DNA from: a virus
Lineage: Duplodnaviria > Heunggongvirae > Uroviricota > Caudoviricetes
Direction: 5' to 3' (one strand)
Virus record (IMG/VR): IMGVR_UViG_3300020036_001703
Length of the DNA stretch: 15,383 bases
In this document: one piece after another, positions 3,153-10,392 of the stretch
Position numbering within the stretch: the stretch's first letter is position 1
Layout of the letters: every line of letters begins with the position of its first letter
Position numbers and translations under genes: made by a program
Notes under the pieces: model-generated
Database searches by the model: none
Seen by the model: the letters and a program-made list of their open reading frames with translations, nothing else
Told to the model about the DNA's origin: nothing

Positions 3153-3250
3153 GCCTGAATAGCTCAGATGGTAGAGACTCCACCTACTTTTGTAGGTTCG
3201 GTTCCCTGAAGAGGAATGCGTCGGAGGTTCGAATCCTTCTTTTGGCACCA
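3153..3250 (+). tRNA. trnF: tRNA-Phe(GAA) with 22-nt insertion in the D-stem 3' strand (possibly pseudo)
   Basis: Acceptor GCCTGAA/TTTTGGC, anticodon stem GTTCC/GGAAT with loop CTGAAGA, T-arm GGAGG-TTCGAAT-CCTTC, encoded ACCA. Removing 3177-3198 gives a canonical 76-nt tRNA. Confidence 0.75.
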
Positions 3251-3306
3251 AAGAAAATGCATGTTGTTTGGCTACAACAAACACTAATCAAGAATGATGA
3301 TGATAC

Positions 3307-3335
3307 TTGACATTGAAGTGGAAAGCTTCTACGAT
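3307..3335 (+). promoter_or_regulatory. sigma70-like promoter abutting tRNA-Val
   Basis: TTGACA (3307-3312), 17 nt, TACGAT (3330-3335). Confidence 0.5.
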
Positions 3336-3410
3336 AGAGACTTAGCACAGAGGTAGTGCGGCTCCTTTACACGGAGTAGGTCATAGGTTCGATCCCTATA
3401 GTCTCTACCA
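3336..3410 (+). tRNA. trnV: tRNA-Val(UAC)
   Basis: AGAGACT/AGTCTCT acceptor, GCTCC-TTTACAC-GGAGT anticodon arm, encoded CCA. Confidence 0.92.
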
Positions 3411-3411
3411 T

Positions 3412-3486
3412 GTCGATGTAGTTTAATGGTTAGAACAGATGGTTTTCATCCATCCAATCCGAGTTCGATTCTCGGTATCGACTCCA
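3412..3486 (+). tRNA. trnE: tRNA-Glu(UUC)
   Basis: GTCGATG/TATCGAC acceptor, GATGG-TTTTCAT-CCATC anticodon arm, encoded CCA. Confidence 0.9.
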
Positions 3487-3498
3487 GAATTTTTAGGT

Positions 3499-3573
3499 GT
3501 GGCTATAACTCAACTGGTTAGAGTTTCAGGTTGTGACCCTGAATGTGAGAGTTCAAGTCTCTCTAGTCACCCC
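3499..3573 (+). tRNA. trnH: tRNA-His(GUG), lacking G-1 and a complete CCA
   Basis: GTGGCTA/TAGTCAC acceptor, TCAGG-TTGTGAC-CCTGA anticodon arm, C73 followed by CCT. Confidence 0.8.
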
Positions 3574-3590
3574 TAAAAGTTTTAAATTAA

Positions 3591-3666
3591 TGCGGGATAA
3601 CTCAGTTGGTAGAGTGCGAGGCTCATAACCTTGATGTCGTCGGTTCGAATCCGGCTCCCGCAACCA
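3591..3666 (+). tRNA. trnM: tRNA-Met(CAU); initiator, elongator or Ile2 identity not resolved
   Basis: TGCGGGA/TCCCGCA acceptor, CGAGG-CTCATAA-CCTTG anticodon arm, encoded ACCA. Confidence 0.88.
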
Positions 3667-3673
3667 GAATTAA

Positions 3674-3749
3674 TGCCGGTTAGCTCAGTTGTTAGAGCAC
3701 TCGCTTGATAAGCGATAGGTCGTTGGTTAGAGTCCAACACTGGCAACCA
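3674..3749 (+). tRNA. trnI: tRNA-Ile(GAU)
   Basis: TGCCGGT/ACTGGCA acceptor, loop TTGATAA, encoded ACCA; atypical D loop (AGTTGTTA) and T loop (TTAGAGT). Confidence 0.85.
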
Positions 3750-3755
3750 TTTAAT

Positions 3756-3832
3756 GGGTCTTTATTTTCAATTGGATAGATAAATAGACTACGAATTTAT
3801 TGGCGAGAGTTCGAATCTTTCAAGACCCTCCA
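3756..3832 (+). tRNA. trnR: tRNA-Arg(ACG)
   Basis: GGGTCTT/AAGACCC acceptor, ATAGA-CTACGAA-TTTAT anticodon arm, encoded CCA; weak D stem. Confidence 0.8.
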
Positions 3833-3838
3833 TATTGT

Positions 3839-3916
3839 TGGCGAGTAGAATAGTCAGGCCTAATTCAAGCGGCTTTGACCCGCTGATCGTTGGTTCGAAT
3901 CCAACCTCGTCTGCCA
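3839..3916 (+). tRNA. trnQ: tRNA-Gln(UUG)
   Basis: AGCGG-CTTTGAC-CCGCT anticodon arm, GTTGG-TTCGAAT-CCAAC T-arm, GCCA end; 1-72 mismatch. Confidence 0.88.
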
Positions 3917-3923
3917 ATTTAAA

Positions 3924-4007
3924 GCCTCGGTGGTGGAATGGTATACACACTACGCTAAGAACGTAGCGCCGAAAGGATTGAGGGTTCGACTCCCTCCTGA
4001 GGCACCA
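3924..4007 (+). tRNA. trnL: tRNA-Leu(AAG), type II with long variable arm
   Basis: GCCTCGG/CTGAGGC acceptor, CTACG-CTAAGAA-CGTAG anticodon arm (AAG at 3957-3959), variable arm CGCCGAAAGGATT, A73 and CCA. Confidence 0.92.
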
Positions 4008-4067: not shown

Positions 4068-4427
4068 ATGCCTTTTGTACCTGGGAAATCTGGTAATCCT
4101 AATGGAAGACCAAGTAAAGACAAGATTGCAGCTAGAGAAGCTTCGGATAAGACTAATCGAGAACTCAGAGAAAGAGCTTTACTTGAACTTGCTCGTAAGT
4201 TTAAACCTTCTGTAGCACCTGCAATGAAGACTATTCTTCAGATTATGGGTGATGATAAAGCTTCTGAAGCAGGTAAGTTGAAAGCTGCAGCTTTAGTTAT
4301 TCAGACTTACAATTCATTAGTTAAAGATCTTTATGATTATCGTTATGACGAAGAGAAGGCTGAAGAAGTTCAGCAAACTGACAAAGCTCCTGTATTCTCT
4401 CTAAAGATGGTTAATAAGGATGAATAA
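4068..4427 (+). CDS. terS: probable terminase small subunit (DUF5681-like N-terminal motif)
   Basis: FVPGKSGNPNGRP motif; directly upstream of terL. True ATG is 4068 after GGAG; the ORF-track start 3930 lies inside tRNA-Leu. Confidence 0.7.
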   Translation: MPFVPGKSGNPNGRPSKDKIAAREASDKTNRELRERALLELARKFKPSVAPAMKTILQIMGDDKASEAGKLKAAALVIQTYNSLVKDLYDYRYDEEKAEEVQQTDKAPVFSLKMVNKDE

Positions 4428-4442
4428 ACATAAGGAGGTTGA

Positions 4443-4529
4443 ATGAGTTCTAATACTGTATTTGCACCAGCGTCAAAAGCACAAGAGCAATTCTTGAATA
4501 GTGATGCAGATATTACTTTCTATGGTGGT
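4443..4529 (+). CDS. terL: terminase large subunit, exon 1 (MSSNTVFAPASKAQEQFLNSDADITFYGG)
   Basis: ATG after TAAGGAGG; Q-motif-like AQEQFL and the first half of Walker A (FYGG). Absent from the ORF track. Confidence 0.92.
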
Positions 4530-4761
4530 AAAGTTGTGCCTCCATTCAAAACCTATTTAATTCGGTGAAACCCTAACGTAAAATCGAGGGCAATACCGAG
4601 CCAAGCAGGGGGTATTTTTAATATCCCCGGGCGTGTGTAGAGACTATGGGAAACCAGTAAGGTTCAAGCGAATCTGAAACAGTAGGATGCTTTATAGCAT
4701 AAGATATAGTCCGACACCCAAGGAAACTTGGGAGTACTCTAGCGAAGTACATAACTTTCTG
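4530..4761 (+). ncRNA. group I intron 1 (232 nt, ORF-less, IA-like) in terL Walker A
   Basis: P1 with U.G (ATGGTGGT/GCCTCCAT); P AATTCGGTGAAAC 4559-4571; Q AATACCGAGCCAAGC 4592-4606; P7 GACTA 4642-4646 with TAGTC 4707-4711 inside AAGATATAGTCC; P9 CCCAAG-GAAA-CTTGGG; terminal G 4761. Removal restores YGG-AAGSGKS in frame. Confidence 0.93.
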
Positions 4762-5988
4762 GCAGCGGGCAGTGGAAAGAGCCATTGCTTACTTATGTCG
4801 TTCCTAAAGTTTTGTCATCATCCACGTACTCGTGGTGTGATATTTAGGCGAACAACAAAGCAGATCACAAACCCTGGTGGTTTATTTGACTCTGCAGTTA
4901 ATTTATACAAATTAGTAGATCCTAAACTAAGAGTAAGAATGAGAGAGTTAGAACTTGTTTTTAGTTCTGGAGCTGTTCTCAAATTTGCTTACCTTGACAA
5001 TGCTTCTGATAAATATAACTTCCAAGGTGCGGAACTTACTTTCATTGGTTTTGATGAGATTCAACAATTAAGTGAAGACAATGTAACTTATTTGTTTTCT
5101 CGTTTGCGTTCAACCTCAGTTGATTATAAGAAGCAGATTGTAGCTACAGGTAATCCTGACTACGATAGTTTCATTCGACATTGGGTTGAATTTGCACTTG
5201 ATGAGCGTGGCATTCCAATTAGAAAAGATGTTTACCCTACTCGATATATGTGTCAAGCGATGGGTGGCTCTATTGAGTGGGCAGATACTAGAGAAGAACT
5301 AGAGAAGAAATATGGTACTGGGGATGACTCTGGTATTCTATCCTTTACATTCATTCCAGGGACTATTTATGATAATCCACCTTTGATGAAGGCTGATCCG
5401 ACTTACGTTAGTAAGTTAAAGAAACTTCCTCGCGTTGAGATGGAACGTCTTCTATTAGGGTCTTGGTATGCAAGACAAGAGGCTGCTGGGCTATGGAAAA
5501 GAGAATGGATAACTCTTGTAGATCACCCTAATCCTAGAGCAACAAAGAGGATAAGAGCATGGGACTTTGCATTTAGTCTGCCATCTGAACAATATCCAAA
5601 TCCTGACTGGACTCGTGGTGTCCTTATGTCAAAGGATAAAAATAGTGTTTACACAGTTGAAAATATTGTCTCTATGCGAGATAGAGTACATGAGGTTGAG
5701 AAGTTGGTATTTGAGACTGCAATGCGTGATGGACAAGAAGTTATTATTTCTATCCCAATTGATCCTGCCGCTGCTGCTGGAGCTTATGCTAGGGATTTTC
5801 AACGTAGACTTTCAGAGTATGGTTTCAATGTGAAATTATCTAAACCTGTGAAGTCTAAGGTAACTCGATTTGCTCCATTCTCAAGTGTAACTCAGGCAGG
5901 GTTTGTTAATGTAGTAAAGGGTGATTGGAATACCCCTTTCTTTGACGAATTAGAGATCTTTGATGGAGATCCTAAGAAAAAAGACGAT
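4762..5988 (+). CDS. terL: terminase large subunit, exon 2 (409 aa)
   Basis: AAGSGKS, GFDEIQQ Walker B, ATGNP coupling motif, RAWDFA nuclease Asp; ends in KKDD. Confidence 0.93.
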
Positions 5989-6756
5989 TAAATTGGGTCG
6001 TCTATAAACTCATTGAATTCGGTGGACACCTACTTGGAATCAAGTAGACAATACCGAGCGAAGCTGGTGTAATACCAGAACGTGTAACGACTAGCCGAAA
6101 GGCGTAGGGGCAAGTGCTCCGAAGCGGTGAGAAACCTAATAACTTAGGTTTAAGATATAGTCTCATCTGCATGGTGACATGCAGCATTTTAATATAGGAG
6201 AATTTCTATGATTTATAATTCAAACTCTACAGGTCCTTTTAAAATTCTGCAAAGGAATGGGGATGCTTGTTTAATTCAGTTTATAGACACTGGCACCACT
6301 AAAACTGCTCATATTTCTAATGTATTAGCTGGTAAAGTAAAAGACCAATACTTCCCTACTTTGTATGGTAAGGGGTATTATGGGGATTACGACAAGACTA
6401 CGACTTATTACAAGCAGGCTAAACAGCTTTGGCAAAATATGCTAAAAAGATGTTATTGCGAAAAAGACTTAAAAGGTTACTATGGTAAAGCAACAGTATC
6501 ACAAAGATGGTTGAACTTTAGCAATTTCCTAGAGGATTTGCCTAGCCTTGTAAACTTTAAGCAGTGGCTGGCCGGCCAACAAAAAACAGGCGGGAAATAT
6601 AATCTGGATAAAGATTTAAAGGTAAAAGGTAATACCTGTTACTGTAAAGAAGCCTGTATGTTTGTAACTGAGTTTGAAAATAAATCAGAAGGTGCCAAAA
6701 ATGGCAAACCTTATACTAAAGTGGGCAAGAGTTAACGCCTCTTGTTTAAGATAATG
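5989..6756 (+). mobile_element. group I intron 2 (768 nt, IA-like) with endonuclease ORF, in the terL nuclease motif
   Basis: P1 AGACGAT/GTCGTCT with U.G; P AATTCGGTGGAC; Q AATACCGAGCGAAGC; P7 GACTA 6089-6093 with TAGTC 6158-6162 inside AAGATATAGTCT; P8 AAACCTAA/TTAGGTTT; P9 CTGCATG-GTGA-CATGCAG; terminal G 6756. Removal gives KKDD-QADCCSDAF. Confidence 0.93.
6208..6735 (+). CDS. intron-encoded HNH-like (His-Me finger type) putative homing endonuclease
   Basis: WQNMLKRCY...VSQRWLNFSNF...LDKDLKVKGNTCY...CMFVTEFEN pattern of phage HNH-like proteins; own SD AGGAG; located 3' of P9 inside intron 2. Confidence 0.75.
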   Translation: MIYNSNSTGPFKILQRNGDACLIQFIDTGTTKTAHISNVLAGKVKDQYFPTLYGKGYYGDYDKTTTYYKQAKQLWQNMLKRCYCEKDLKGYYGKATVSQRWLNFSNFLEDLPSLVNFKQWLAGQQKTGGKYNLDKDLKVKGNTCYCKEACMFVTEFENKSEGAKNGKPYTKVGKS

Positions 6757-6930
6757 CAAGCAGATTGTTGTTCAGATGCTTTCTTGCTTTTGAACAAAGA
6801 GTTGATCATACCTGAGATGACTTTAACTGAGTTGTCTTCAACAAACCCCTTCAATTTTAATACAAGTTTAGGTCAAGCAGGATTATCTGCTCCACCTTTA
6901 CCTGTTAACTTACCTTCTTTTAATTTTTAA
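6757..6930 (+). CDS. terL: terminase large subunit, exon 3 (57 aa)
   Basis: QADCCSDAF completes the DDQxD nuclease motif; stops just before the portal SD. Confidence 0.9.
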   Translation, partial: QADCCSDAFLLLNKELIIPEMTLTELSSTNPFNFNTSLGQAGLSAPPLPVNLPSFNF

Positions 6931-6939
6931 AGGATAATT

Positions 6940-8391
6940 ATGGATGAAACAAGAGTAGAAAAAGGTTTAGATGATCCGAACCGTTTTAAACTTTCAGAAA
7001 TGGGGTATATAGGTCTTAATATCTTTGATGGTGTTACTTCTGATGAGCTAAAAAAGGAATTGAATTTTCCTTATAATCTAAAGACATATAAACAAATGTC
7101 GGTTCATTCTACTATTAACGCCGCACTGACTTTATATGATAATATTGTAACAAAGGCAAATTGGGTAGTAAGACCTCCTGAATCTCCTACACAGGAAGAA
7201 AAAGATCAAACCAAGTTCATTGAAGAATGCATGAATGATATGGAACATTCTTGGTCTGAATTTATTCAGGAAGCTTTAAGTATGACTACTTTTGGTTTTT
7301 CTGTGCATGAAAAAGTATATCGTAGACGATTTTCTTCTAATGGTAGTAAATACAATGATGGGAAAATTGGCTGGAAAAAGATCCCAATTCGTTGTCAAGA
7401 AAGTATTTGTAGATTTATTTACTCTGAAGATGGTAATGATTTGATTGGGGTTAGACAGAATGTTTCTGCTTTACAAGATCCAATGAATCGCTACAAGAAT
7501 AAGACTGAAGTTGCATTTCCAATTTCTAAAGTTCTTCTCTTTAGAACTGGTCGTCATAGAGGTGATCCATTTGGTAAGAGTCCCTTGCGTGATGCTTATT
7601 TAGCATGGAGATACTTGATGGCTTTGGAAGAAATTGAAGCTACTGGAGTTACTAAGGATTTAGTAGGTTTACCAGTTCTTTATATCCCACCTCAGTATCT
7701 TTCTGCTGATGCAACACCTGAACAAATTGCTATTCGTAAATATTATGAACAGGCAATGGCAAATCTTCAGATCAACCAGCAATCAGCAATGATTTTACCT
7801 CAAGCATTTGATCCAGAGACTAAACAAGCTTTATTTAAGATGGATCTTCTTAGTGTATCTGGTCAAAAAGGATTTGATACAACTAAGATTAAAGAATACT
7901 ATAAAAATTTAATCCTTACTTCATTATTCGCGGATATTCTAATCATGGGTCAAAGTACTACAGGTAGTTTTGCACTTGGTCAGATTAAAAATAGTCTTAC
8001 AGGTACTGCTGCTGAATCTTTCATTTCCACTATTAGGGATGTAATCAATAAAGATCTGATCCGCCAGACTTACGAATTGAATGGTTGGGATGCTTCAAGA
8101 GCTTGTGTGATTGACTATGAAAACATTGATAGTGTAGATGCTGAAACATTCTCTAAGGCAATTCAACGTATTGCTTCAGTAGGATTCTTGACGAAAGACC
8201 TTGACACTATTAATAAGATTAGAAATGTATTAGGTACAGATGAACTTCCTGAGGGAACAGATTTTGAATCTTTACTTAGTGATATGACATCCAGGTCTGG
8301 TGATGGGATGTCTAAGGGTTCTGGTAATGGTACAAGTGACAATGTTGCTGGTACTGACAACTCTTCAAATAATGCAGATAATGCAAGTTAA
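6940..8391 (+). CDS. portal protein (DUF935/Mu gp29-like)
   Basis: 483 aa directly after terL; GYIGL...ELKKEL...YKQMS and PFGKSPLRDAY...GLPVLYIP motifs typical of this portal type. Confidence 0.88.
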   Translation: MDETRVEKGLDDPNRFKLSEMGYIGLNIFDGVTSDELKKELNFPYNLKTYKQMSVHSTINAALTLYDNIVTKANWVVRPPESPTQEEKDQTKFIEECMNDMEHSWSEFIQEALSMTTFGFSVHEKVYRRRFSSNGSKYNDGKIGWKKIPIRCQESICRFIYSEDGNDLIGVRQNVSALQDPMNRYKNKTEVAFPISKVLLFRTGRHRGDPFGKSPLRDAYLAWRYLMALEEIEATGVTKDLVGLPVLYIPPQYLSADATPEQIAIRKYYEQAMANLQINQQSAMILPQAFDPETKQALFKMDLLSVSGQKGFDTTKIKEYYKNLILTSLFADILIMGQSTTGSFALGQIKNSLTGTAAESFISTIRDVINKDLIRQTYELNGWDASRACVIDYENIDSVDAETFSKAIQRIASVGFLTKDLDTINKIRNVLGTDELPEGTDFESLLSDMTSRSGDGMSKGSGNGTSDNVAGTDNSSNNADNAS

Positions 8392-8406: not shown

Positions 8407-10392
8407 ATGCCAAATGTAAGTGAAACAAGGCTTGGTATTGATGGTAAACTTAGTGTTGAATTTTCAGGTGGAGCAGCCTCTCGCGTTGTTGACTTGGCTA
8501 ATGCGACAGAACTTTTTACTGATGAGGCGACGTTGAATGATCTTAATACACGACACCCAGCCTCAAGCAACGCTGGGAATAGTGCGATTGTGGGTGGGCG
8601 CCTGTATCAGTCTACACCATCGGCATGGCTATTGCCAGCCTTGATGGATCCAGTGTCTCGTCATTTCGAGGACTCGGACATCGCTGATGGTATCGGCTAC
8701 GCGGCCATGCAGTACCTGGGCGGGGCTGGCTCACTGTTTCCCGCTGTCCGCCCCGAAAATTACGGAGACGTGTCAACGGATGCGACGGCTGCGATTCAAG
8801 CCGCTCTGAACGCCTCCCCTTCGATCATCCTGACGCCGGGCGTCACGTACACCGTCACAGACACTATTGTTTTGCCCGCTGGTCGTGTCTACATCTATTT
8901 CAACGGCGCGACGGTGCAGGCCTCATTCGGGACTAGCTACAGCAAGGCGCTGTTCAGCAACAACAAGACGACTGACGCATCTACCACGCTGTTTGCCGAC
9001 CGCGTGCGCGTAACGGGTAACTGCTGCGCGTTCGACATGCGGTTTACCGCTAACAACCCAGGCGCCGGCTTGGCCATCATCATTGACGGCCTGTACATGA
9101 ACACGCTGGACGGCAACCGCCGTGCAGGCACCAAGGTTTTGGACATCGACCAAGCCGACTTCTGCGCAATCCGTAACGTTGAAGCTTGGAACCTCGACCT
9201 GCCCTTCATGCTGGGTCGTGGTGGCACACGCCGCAACTGCACGCAGATTTTGCTAGACCAAATCATGGTGGCGCAGGTCAACTCAGCTTGCCGCATTGAG
9301 GGCGTTTCCAAAGGCCGAATCAACGGCTTCGACGTAATGACCTGCAACAGCGGGTTCAGCTTCGAGGGATCGAATGAACTGATTGATGTGCACCAGTGCC
9401 ACGTCGAAGGAATCGGCAAGTCGGGTTACTCGGTGAGCGCGCTTGTAAGCTCTTCGTCGGCAGGGACTGGCTGTAATTTCATCGACAGCGTGCAGCATCG
9501 GAAAATCATGCTGAAGCAGTTCGACGTGATCGACCAGGGCGGCACAGGTGGCACGGCCACTGCCGGTATTCGCGTTGGCAAGAACGACGCATCGCAGGCG
9601 ACACTCCAAACCATCACTTTTGAAGACTGCAACATCGCGGGCGCTCAGGATGCCTCGGCCAGCTACAAGCCGCTGGTTAACCGTGGCCGTTTCAAATGGC
9701 GCGGATTGTGGGGCTTCACCAGCAACGTTTCACTATCCGCTAACAGCCAGGGCTACATCGATATGGAAATCGATGACGGCTACAACAATGCGGCCCCTTA
9801 CATTGACCTGATTGGTGGAGGAACTGTGTTGAGCCTCGTCAACGGCTCGGCTACGAACCCGCCCACCATCACCGAGGTATCAGTAGGCACAACGTCATAC
9901 AACGTCGCGCATCAGGTTGTTTTCAACGCGGCGAACTACGAACTGATCCGCACGATCAACTGTCCGTATGGCTGGAACACGATTGACATCGTTGGGTATC
10001 GCACGGCGGGTAACCCTATCGTTTTCGTGCAGCAAAACGGCGGGTCGTTTACCGATCTGGTGCGTATCCAGTTCAACGGGCTTAACGACAAACAGCGTCG
10101 ATGGAGAATTGCGTTCTGGAACGATGCCGCAAACCAGGGTTTGAGGATCGGGTTGTCTGGCCAGGCCATCGGCGACACGTGCGTGGTCCAATCGATCAAC
10201 TGTTATCCAGGCCTGCCACGTCGCGACGTGCCCCAAACACTGGATCACATCGTTACTGCATTGCCGACTGCGTCTGCGCGATGGCGCTACCACCGCATGG
10301 CACTGCGAAACGGCGCAACTGATGAGACGCGCCACACGTGTGTGGTGGACGCCGCTGGCACGTACCTGTGGAAACAGTACACGTTGACATGA
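8407..10392 (+). CDS. right-handed beta-helix (pectate lyase 3-like) protein, tailspike/depolymerase-like, GC-rich
   Basis: PENYGDVSTDATAAIQAALNA...TYTVTDTIVLP is the classic N-terminal motif of Pectate_lyase_3-type beta-helices, followed by Asn/Gly/Ile/Val-rich repeats; SD TAAGGA. Confidence 0.75.
   Translation: MPNVSETRLGIDGKLSVEFSGGAASRVVDLANATELFTDEATLNDLNTRHPASSNAGNSAIVGGRLYQSTPSAWLLPALMDPVSRHFEDSDIADGIGYAAMQYLGGAGSLFPAVRPENYGDVSTDATAAIQAALNASPSIILTPGVTYTVTDTIVLPAGRVYIYFNGATVQASFGTSYSKALFSNNKTTDASTTLFADRVRVTGNCCAFDMRFTANNPGAGLAIIIDGLYMNTLDGNRRAGTKVLDIDQADFCAIRNVEAWNLDLPFMLGRGGTRRNCTQILLDQIMVAQVNSACRIEGVSKGRINGFDVMTCNSGFSFEGSNELIDVHQCHVEGIGKSGYSVSALVSSSSAGTGCNFIDSVQHRKIMLKQFDVIDQGGTGGTATAGIRVGKNDASQATLQTITFEDCNIAGAQDASASYKPLVNRGRFKWRGLWGFTSNVSLSANSQGYIDMEIDDGYNNAAPYIDLIGGGTVLSLVNGSATNPPTITEVSVGTTSYNVAHQVVFNAANYELIRTINCPYGWNTIDIVGYRTAGNPIVFVQQNGGSFTDLVRIQFNGLNDKQRRWRIAFWNDAANQGLRIGLSGQAIGDTCVVQSINCYPGLPRRDVPQTLDHIVTALPTASARWRYHRMALRNGATDETRHTCVVDAAGTYLWKQYTLT

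Follow-up and report, generated by a model that had tools for sequence, protein, structure and literature searches.

Two group I introns interrupt the terminase large subunit gene of an uncultured freshwater-type phage at conserved active-site codons

Background

Group I introns prefer conserved sites (PMC2814812, PMC3984707), and terL, the gene for the terminase large subunit, is known to carry two of them in Bacillus phage Moonbeam (PMC4299906) and two or three in some Bastillevirinae (PMC11878797), with splicing demonstrated for SIOphi and phiAGATE. For such introns a role as a "molecular on-switch" has already been put forward in print, as a hypothesis (PMC11878797). Vibrio phage ICP1 (PMC10448857) has an ORF-less intron in the Walker A motif, confirmed by RT-PCR, a short N-terminal exon missed by annotation and, next to exon 1, a free-standing endonuclease gene for which collaborative homing was proposed. 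In Pectobacterium phage CB7 (PMC7344957), a single HNH-carrying group I intron, also with splicing shown by RT-PCR, interrupts another catalytic motif, Walker B (FIGVD^E). Two group I introns are present in terL of Pseudomonas phages KIL1-KIL5 (Flaumdravirus); the GenBank record has a join across the first one alone, and the genome paper is silent on introns. The intron of cyanophage Pf-WMP3, which encodes I-PfoP3I (PMC3428280), lies in the DNA polymerase gene and is a P2-less IA2 intron with an HNH-type ORF; P7.1 and P7.2 joined by G-U-A are the signature of this subgroup (PMC3428280).

The window analyzed here, a stretch of 15,383 nt, comes from the record of an uncultured phage (76.4 kb, 37% GC, about 82% complete), and its terL is interrupted in the Walker A motif and at a KDD^Q site in the nuclease domain. 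The locus resembles that of ICP1, the TerL of which is homologous (29% identity), in the Walker A intron and the overlooked exon 1. In ICP1, however, the intron is shifted by one codon in the 3′ direction (YGGA^AGGGKS) and none is present in the nuclease domain, and the window lacks an endonuclease gene 5′ of exon 1. The second intron of KIL1-KIL5 occupies the same KDD^Q site with a core 70% identical and an endonuclease 57% identical to those of the window, whereas the first intron of these phages is outside Walker A, around residue 231. In CB7, with a homologous TerL as well, the intron is 71% identical over part of the window's intron-2 core but carries a different endonuclease. The Pf-WMP3 intron shares the lack of P2 and the P7.1-GUA-P7.2 arrangement with the window, but its ORF starts in P6a and not 3′ of P9. 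Moonbeam and the Bastillevirinae belong to a different phage lineage and are likened to the window by intron number. The view of the sequence-only reading that two introns in one terL are less usual is not supported, since Moonbeam, Bastillevirinae, KIL1 and six related loci (L111, L173, L221, L260, L274 and L289), in which the Walker A and KDD^Q pair recurs, have several.

Results and discussion

The terL locus and its surroundings

The phage is of a freshwater type; by TerL, its nearest cultured relative is Limnohabitans phage DC31 (62%, exon 2), followed by the PAK_P1-like phages (48%). The genes in the window are ordered as a tRNA cluster, terS, terL, portal, a GC-rich insert, protease, scaffold and capsid (coordinates of the terL region in Table 1). 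As judged from its position, the gene abutting terL exon 1 probably encodes the terminase small subunit, and no free-standing endonuclease gene lies between the two. A promoter scan found sites no commoner than expected by chance (4 versus 8.4). Nine tRNA matches are clustered at 3153-4004, the first of which (3153-3247) is over-long and of low score. The GC-rich insert (8407-10392, 52-59% GC) is a 661-aa gene with a weak pectate-lyase-like match, and different genes occupy its place in the relatives L003 and L004.

Table 1. Features of the terL region (positions in the window)
Feature	Coordinates	Strand	Description
Probable terS	4068..4427	+	ORF list; DUF5681 match; homologues directly 5′ of terL in most relatives
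Shine-Dalgarno of terL exon 1	4432..4438	+	AAGGAGG; sequence
terL exon 1	4443..4529	+	87 nt, 29 aa; ends GGT GGT; invariant Q14 and G29
Intron 1	4530..4761	+	232 nt; group I, subgroup IA2; ORF-less; no P2
terL exon 2	4762..5988	+	1227 nt, 409 aa; ends GAC GAT; Terminase_6N, Terminase_6C, phrog_979
Intron 2	5989..6756	+	768 nt; group I, subgroup IA2; no P2; carries endonuclease ORF
Hairpin pairing endonuclease Shine-Dalgarno with its AUG	6193..6210	+	conservation
Intron-2 ORF, probable homing endonuclease	6208..6735	+	175 aa; phrog_2081, E 9e-45; alignment
terL exon 3	6757..6930	+	57 aa plus stop
Portal gene	6940..8391	+	Portal_Mu and phrog_113

The joined exons encode a complete TerL

Upon joining of the exons (terL, 4443-6930), a single open frame of 29 + 409 + 57 = 495 aa was obtained, reading YGG^AAGSGKS and KKDD^QAD with both introns in phase 0, exactly as the sequence-only reading had placed them. 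This protein aligned in one piece across both junctions with more than 50 intron-less relatives, including L005 (83% identity), DC31 (59%) and PAK_P1 (46%), which are contiguous at precisely these codons and have the ungapped consensus [FLC]xGG[AS]AGxGK and KDD[QI]xD. The N-terminal ATPase (PF03237, phrog_979) has invariant G28, G29, G32, G34, K35, D127 and E128, with G29, the end of exon 1, being the first Gly of Walker A (GxxGxGKS). Exon 2 supplies the remainder of Walker A, Walker B, the ATPase and most of the C-terminal RNase H-like nuclease (PF17289) up to D438, while exon 3 encodes the last helix of this fold and the C-terminal tail, as seen from the reach of Terminase_6C, which ends at model position 132 with exon 2 alone versus 153/155 in intron-less homologues, and from a model of an intron-less homologue, in which a helix begins at the residue equivalent to D438. 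A fold search with the same nuclease model matched the TerL nucleases of T4, RB49, P22, G20c and SPP1; sequence searches of PDB with TerL had no terminase among their matches. In G20c, D429 of the motif H427-D428-D429 is an essential metal ligand (PMC5389553), and by motif D438 would be its counterpart, the third metal-binding Asp of xDD.

At the sequence level, both splicing events are needed for full-length TerL, as had been claimed, because unspliced intron 1 has an in-frame stop at 4566-4568, ending translation after 41 codons, and unspliced intron 2 begins with an in-frame TAA, which costs the last nuclease helix. Skipping from exon 1 to exon 3 was rejected as a further product; it would be in frame, yet it gives an 86-aa fragment, and the intron-1 guide is unpaired with the start of exon 3.

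Both inserts have the structure of IA2 ribozymes

When the genome record was searched with the Rfam group I model RF00028 (cut-off, 50 bits), the introns were the sole two matches in 76 kb, scoring 62.1 bits (E 5.5e-14) for intron 1 and 75.3 bits (E 6.5e-18) for intron 2, in agreement with the assignment made from the sequence alone of one group I intron to each catalytic motif. In intron 1, P1 (4522-4545) contains U4529•G4538, P10 is formed by 4533-4537 with 4762-4766, P7 by 4642-4646/4707-4711, and P7.1 (4647-4656) is joined by GUA to P7.2 (4660-4675), with G4761 as the terminal G. In intron 2, the corresponding elements are P1 (5982-6003, U5988•G5997), P7 (6089-6093/6158-6162), P7.1 (6094-6103), GUA and P7.2 (6107-6120), followed by P9 (6167-6184), a 3′ hairpin (6722-6748) and terminal G6756. 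The P7.1/P7.2 hairpins noted earlier are thus present in both.

Comparison of alleles revealed that the U•G at the 5′ splice site is invariant (13 of 13 alleles of intron 1 and 12 of 12 of intron 2), as are the G-binding pairs of P7 (G4642-C4711 and G6089-C6162). Among the 13 alleles of intron 1, 97% of cells are paired, with two-sided changes in 23 of 47 pairs, among them the pair that the guide sequence forms with the synonymous base of the Tyr27 codon in exon 1 (C-G in 6, U-A in 6, U-G in 1); among the 12 alleles of intron 2, the values are 98.6% and 17 of 41 pairs. Neither value was reached in any of 500 shuffles (0/500), and slid controls gave at most 8 two-sided cells, although these controls ignore relatedness and the alleles came from pattern searches that pre-selected guide sequences. 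The P3-P7 pseudoknot and the P4-P6 domain are backed by covariation in both introns. These results argue for both inserts being functional IA2 group I ribozymes, for which guanosine-dependent splicing would be expected from known group I chemistry.

Patchy distribution and the partner of intron 1

The presence of introns is patchy between sister phages and on the TerL tree, a quick version with SH-aLRT only and long branches that was used for patchiness only. The Walker A and KDD^Q introns each also occur without the other. L018 and L019, with 95-99% identical DNA, differ by intron 1, as do the sister pair L020 and L021; L052 is intron-less, with terS 93% and portal 95% identical to those of the window.

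All intron-1 alleles sampled are ORF-less and 218-248 nt long (a first DNA pattern for this intron was too loose, giving 118 matches, mostly by chance). Of 12 carriers of a Walker A intron, 8, representing about five independent lineages, have a NUMOD4-HNH gene immediately before exon 1, as have L128, L162, L172 and L307, further carriers of this intron; the gene is missing from all of the roughly 55 intron-less loci. A free-standing endonuclease gene beside intron 1 is absent from the window and from its genome record, which is about 82% complete. A free-standing HNH-like gene (1935-2423) was weighed as a collaborator of intron 1 and rejected, since its homologues lie upstream in many intron-less relatives too. 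The region around it (1802-2655) is about 99% identical to that of G001, with flanks of about 80-85%.

Walker A and Walker B are general hot spots of insertion in related TerLs: introns occur at A30^A31, A31^G32, F126 and D127^E128, inteins at G32^ and K35^. It was also noticed that L074 (1808-2980) has two apparent inteins in Walker A, three extein residues (SGK) apart, and that L016-L019 and L063 (about 2005-3000 in L016) have a LAGLIDADG intein at GSGK^S/T, the first residue of which is Ala and not Cys/Ser; in L017 and L019, this intein lies six codons downstream of intron 1. Matches to Rfam int-alpA just above the cut-off were located upstream of terL or of its neighboring endonuclease gene (L042:1963-2028, L063:1136-1202 and L015:1880-1948).

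Intron 2 encodes a probable homing endonuclease

The ORF in intron 2, which is located 3′ of P9 and had gone unmentioned in the sequence-only reading, matches PHROG HNH families and would consist of an N-terminal SH3-like barrel and an HNH-type (beta-beta-alpha-Me) domain. It had no Pfam match, and Foldseek with its model gave no significant match; the best nuclease fold match was PacI, a weak one (Z 4.8, rmsd 3.9 over 92 residues, model pLDDT 71). No conserved catalytic His was found in the alignment, an LDKD motif being present instead; the sole His (residue 35) is Cys in L003 and L004, and D134, Y145 and N158 are invariant. By analogy with PacI, which has Tyr in place of His (PMC5714182), the enzyme may be PacI-like in mechanism.

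Between the window and two close relatives, the ORF differs by 13-15 silent and 5 replacement changes (18-20 in total; dN/dS about 0.09), from which the endonuclease gene is judged to be under purifying selection, while the ribozyme core has no differences (0/219). The hairpin covering the start of the ORF is weak alone (-3 kcal/mol, z 0.04), and an identical 17-mer is found in five distant relatives; it is possible that it represses translation of the endonuclease.

In viral contigs, the closest homologues of the ORF all lie within a KDD^Q intron. This intron has the same ORF in KIL1-5 and L087-L099, other ORFs in L173 and L245, and elsewhere no ORF (221-269 nt), a range that would be expected from the cycle of invasion, replacement and loss of a homing element. 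The intron-2 5′ pattern also fits inserts after ...ADLLIPDD, a sequence resembling the Walker B of another type of terminase (L236, L240 and L269), and terL records of T7-like Klebsiella and Edwardsiella phages match the intron-2 core.

Origin of the two introns

Very probably, both introns are independent selfish homing IA2 elements at conserved active-site codons of terL. Exogenous G would attack after U4529 and U5988, the exons would be ligated at the terminal G of each intron, as in known group I chemistry, and full-length TerL would be made from the late transcript. Intron 2 would home by means of the HNH-type endonuclease that it encodes, which presumably cuts intron-less alleles near KDD^Q. 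Intron 1 would most likely have spread with the help of a free-standing NUMOD4-HNH enzyme (collaborative homing), or else by co-conversion or ordinary recombination. Active-site codons would be favored as conserved targets from which imprecise loss is lethal, and not for the sake of regulating packaging. Against this explanation stand the missing NUMOD4-HNH collaborator in the present phage and the endonuclease's lack of the canonical His and fold Z of 4.8.

Exchange of the terL body

A tract of 1,055 nt (4402..5456, + strand) spanning intron 1 has zero differences from G001 and G002 (L003 and L004) and is the longest identical run in a 45-kb alignment with G001 at 84% identity. All 58 differences in exon 2 from these two genomes lie at 5457-5961, and the two are mutually identical from about 4402 to 6690. 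This tract points to a recent exchange. Compared with L052, the ATPase is 46%, the nuclease 77% and exon 3 81% identical, whereas compared with the clade sharing the window's ATPase (85%), exon 3 and the portal are distant. Judged from these identities, the terL body has been swapped, from about the start codon as far as the site of intron 2. The same two ATPase alleles, about 45% identical, are found in packaging operons with terS and portal 93-100% identical; such swaps are seen in L006/L039 (terS and portal 100%), L022/L048 (portal 98%, nuclease 95%), L007/L045 and window/L052.

Exchange boundaries at nuclease genes have been described (PMC10448857). We consider it rather unlikely that the intron sites bound a mobile module, in which homing, collaborative through NUMOD4-HNH in the case of Walker A, and likewise at KDD^Q, drives replacement of the ATPase or the whole body by an allele of roughly 45% identity. 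Introns are dispensable for such swaps, some of which took place without any. If the proposal were true, selfish introns would be one engine of domain-level terminase exchange, which might, as a speculation, aid escape from terminase-sensing host defences.

Other explanations for the maintenance of the introns

The main role of the intron-2 endonuclease could be that of a weapon, interfering with co-infecting phages that lack the intron, a benefit that would maintain the element more than neutral homing does. There is a precedent in PhiPA3 versus PhiKZ, as summarized in PMC11878797, and the purifying selection on the ORF fits; we nevertheless regard this as unlikely, since the same selection is expected equally from ongoing homing and intron 1 is left unexplained.

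According to the sequence-only reading, splicing could act as a timing gate for packaging. The gate could be a timing or a metabolic one, GTP- or translation-dependent splicing having been co-opted to delay active TerL. This was not borne out and seems very improbable: the gate is unneeded because the two introns occur separately and one or both are missing from sister phages whose packaging modules are near-identical. In addition, no riboswitch or other known regulatory RNA was found near the splice sites, and terL of SIOphi was seen spliced only (PMC11878797). A true regulatory gate would be of greater importance, but there is no sign of one here.

That one or both introns are dead relics, with TerL made in separate pieces or from the internal ATG 4687, is hardly credible: although a 434-aa ORF is available without splicing and genes in pieces are known (Aeh1 nrdA, cited in PMC7344957), all core helices, the U•G and the terminal G are intact and covarying, the unspliced ORF lacks the invariant Q14, G28 and G29 and the last nuclease helix, and splicing of homologous introns in terL is known from ICP1 and CB7 (PMC10448857, PMC7344957).

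Consequences for annotation

With homing elements as the preferred explanation, the group I introns in terL, at the same two sites in many related phages, look like ordinary selfish elements of an already known kind, and the importance of the locus lies mainly in annotation. As predicted from the sequence, automated annotation misses exon 1 and truncates TerL, the plain ORF call being the 434-aa frame, which has its start within intron 1 and its end at KKDD. Related TerLs often end at KDD and lose exon 1, even in curated GenBank entries; in that of phage KIL1, TerL was ended at the same KDD site. The locus also provides a compact test case: the Walker A intron has no ORF, relatives have an endonuclease that probably collaborates with it, the endonuclease within intron 2 is His-less, and intron-less sister alleles offer natural targets. 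Group I introns were further observed in the portal gene of relatives, at 4924-5239 in L100 (KIL1) and in L096-L098.
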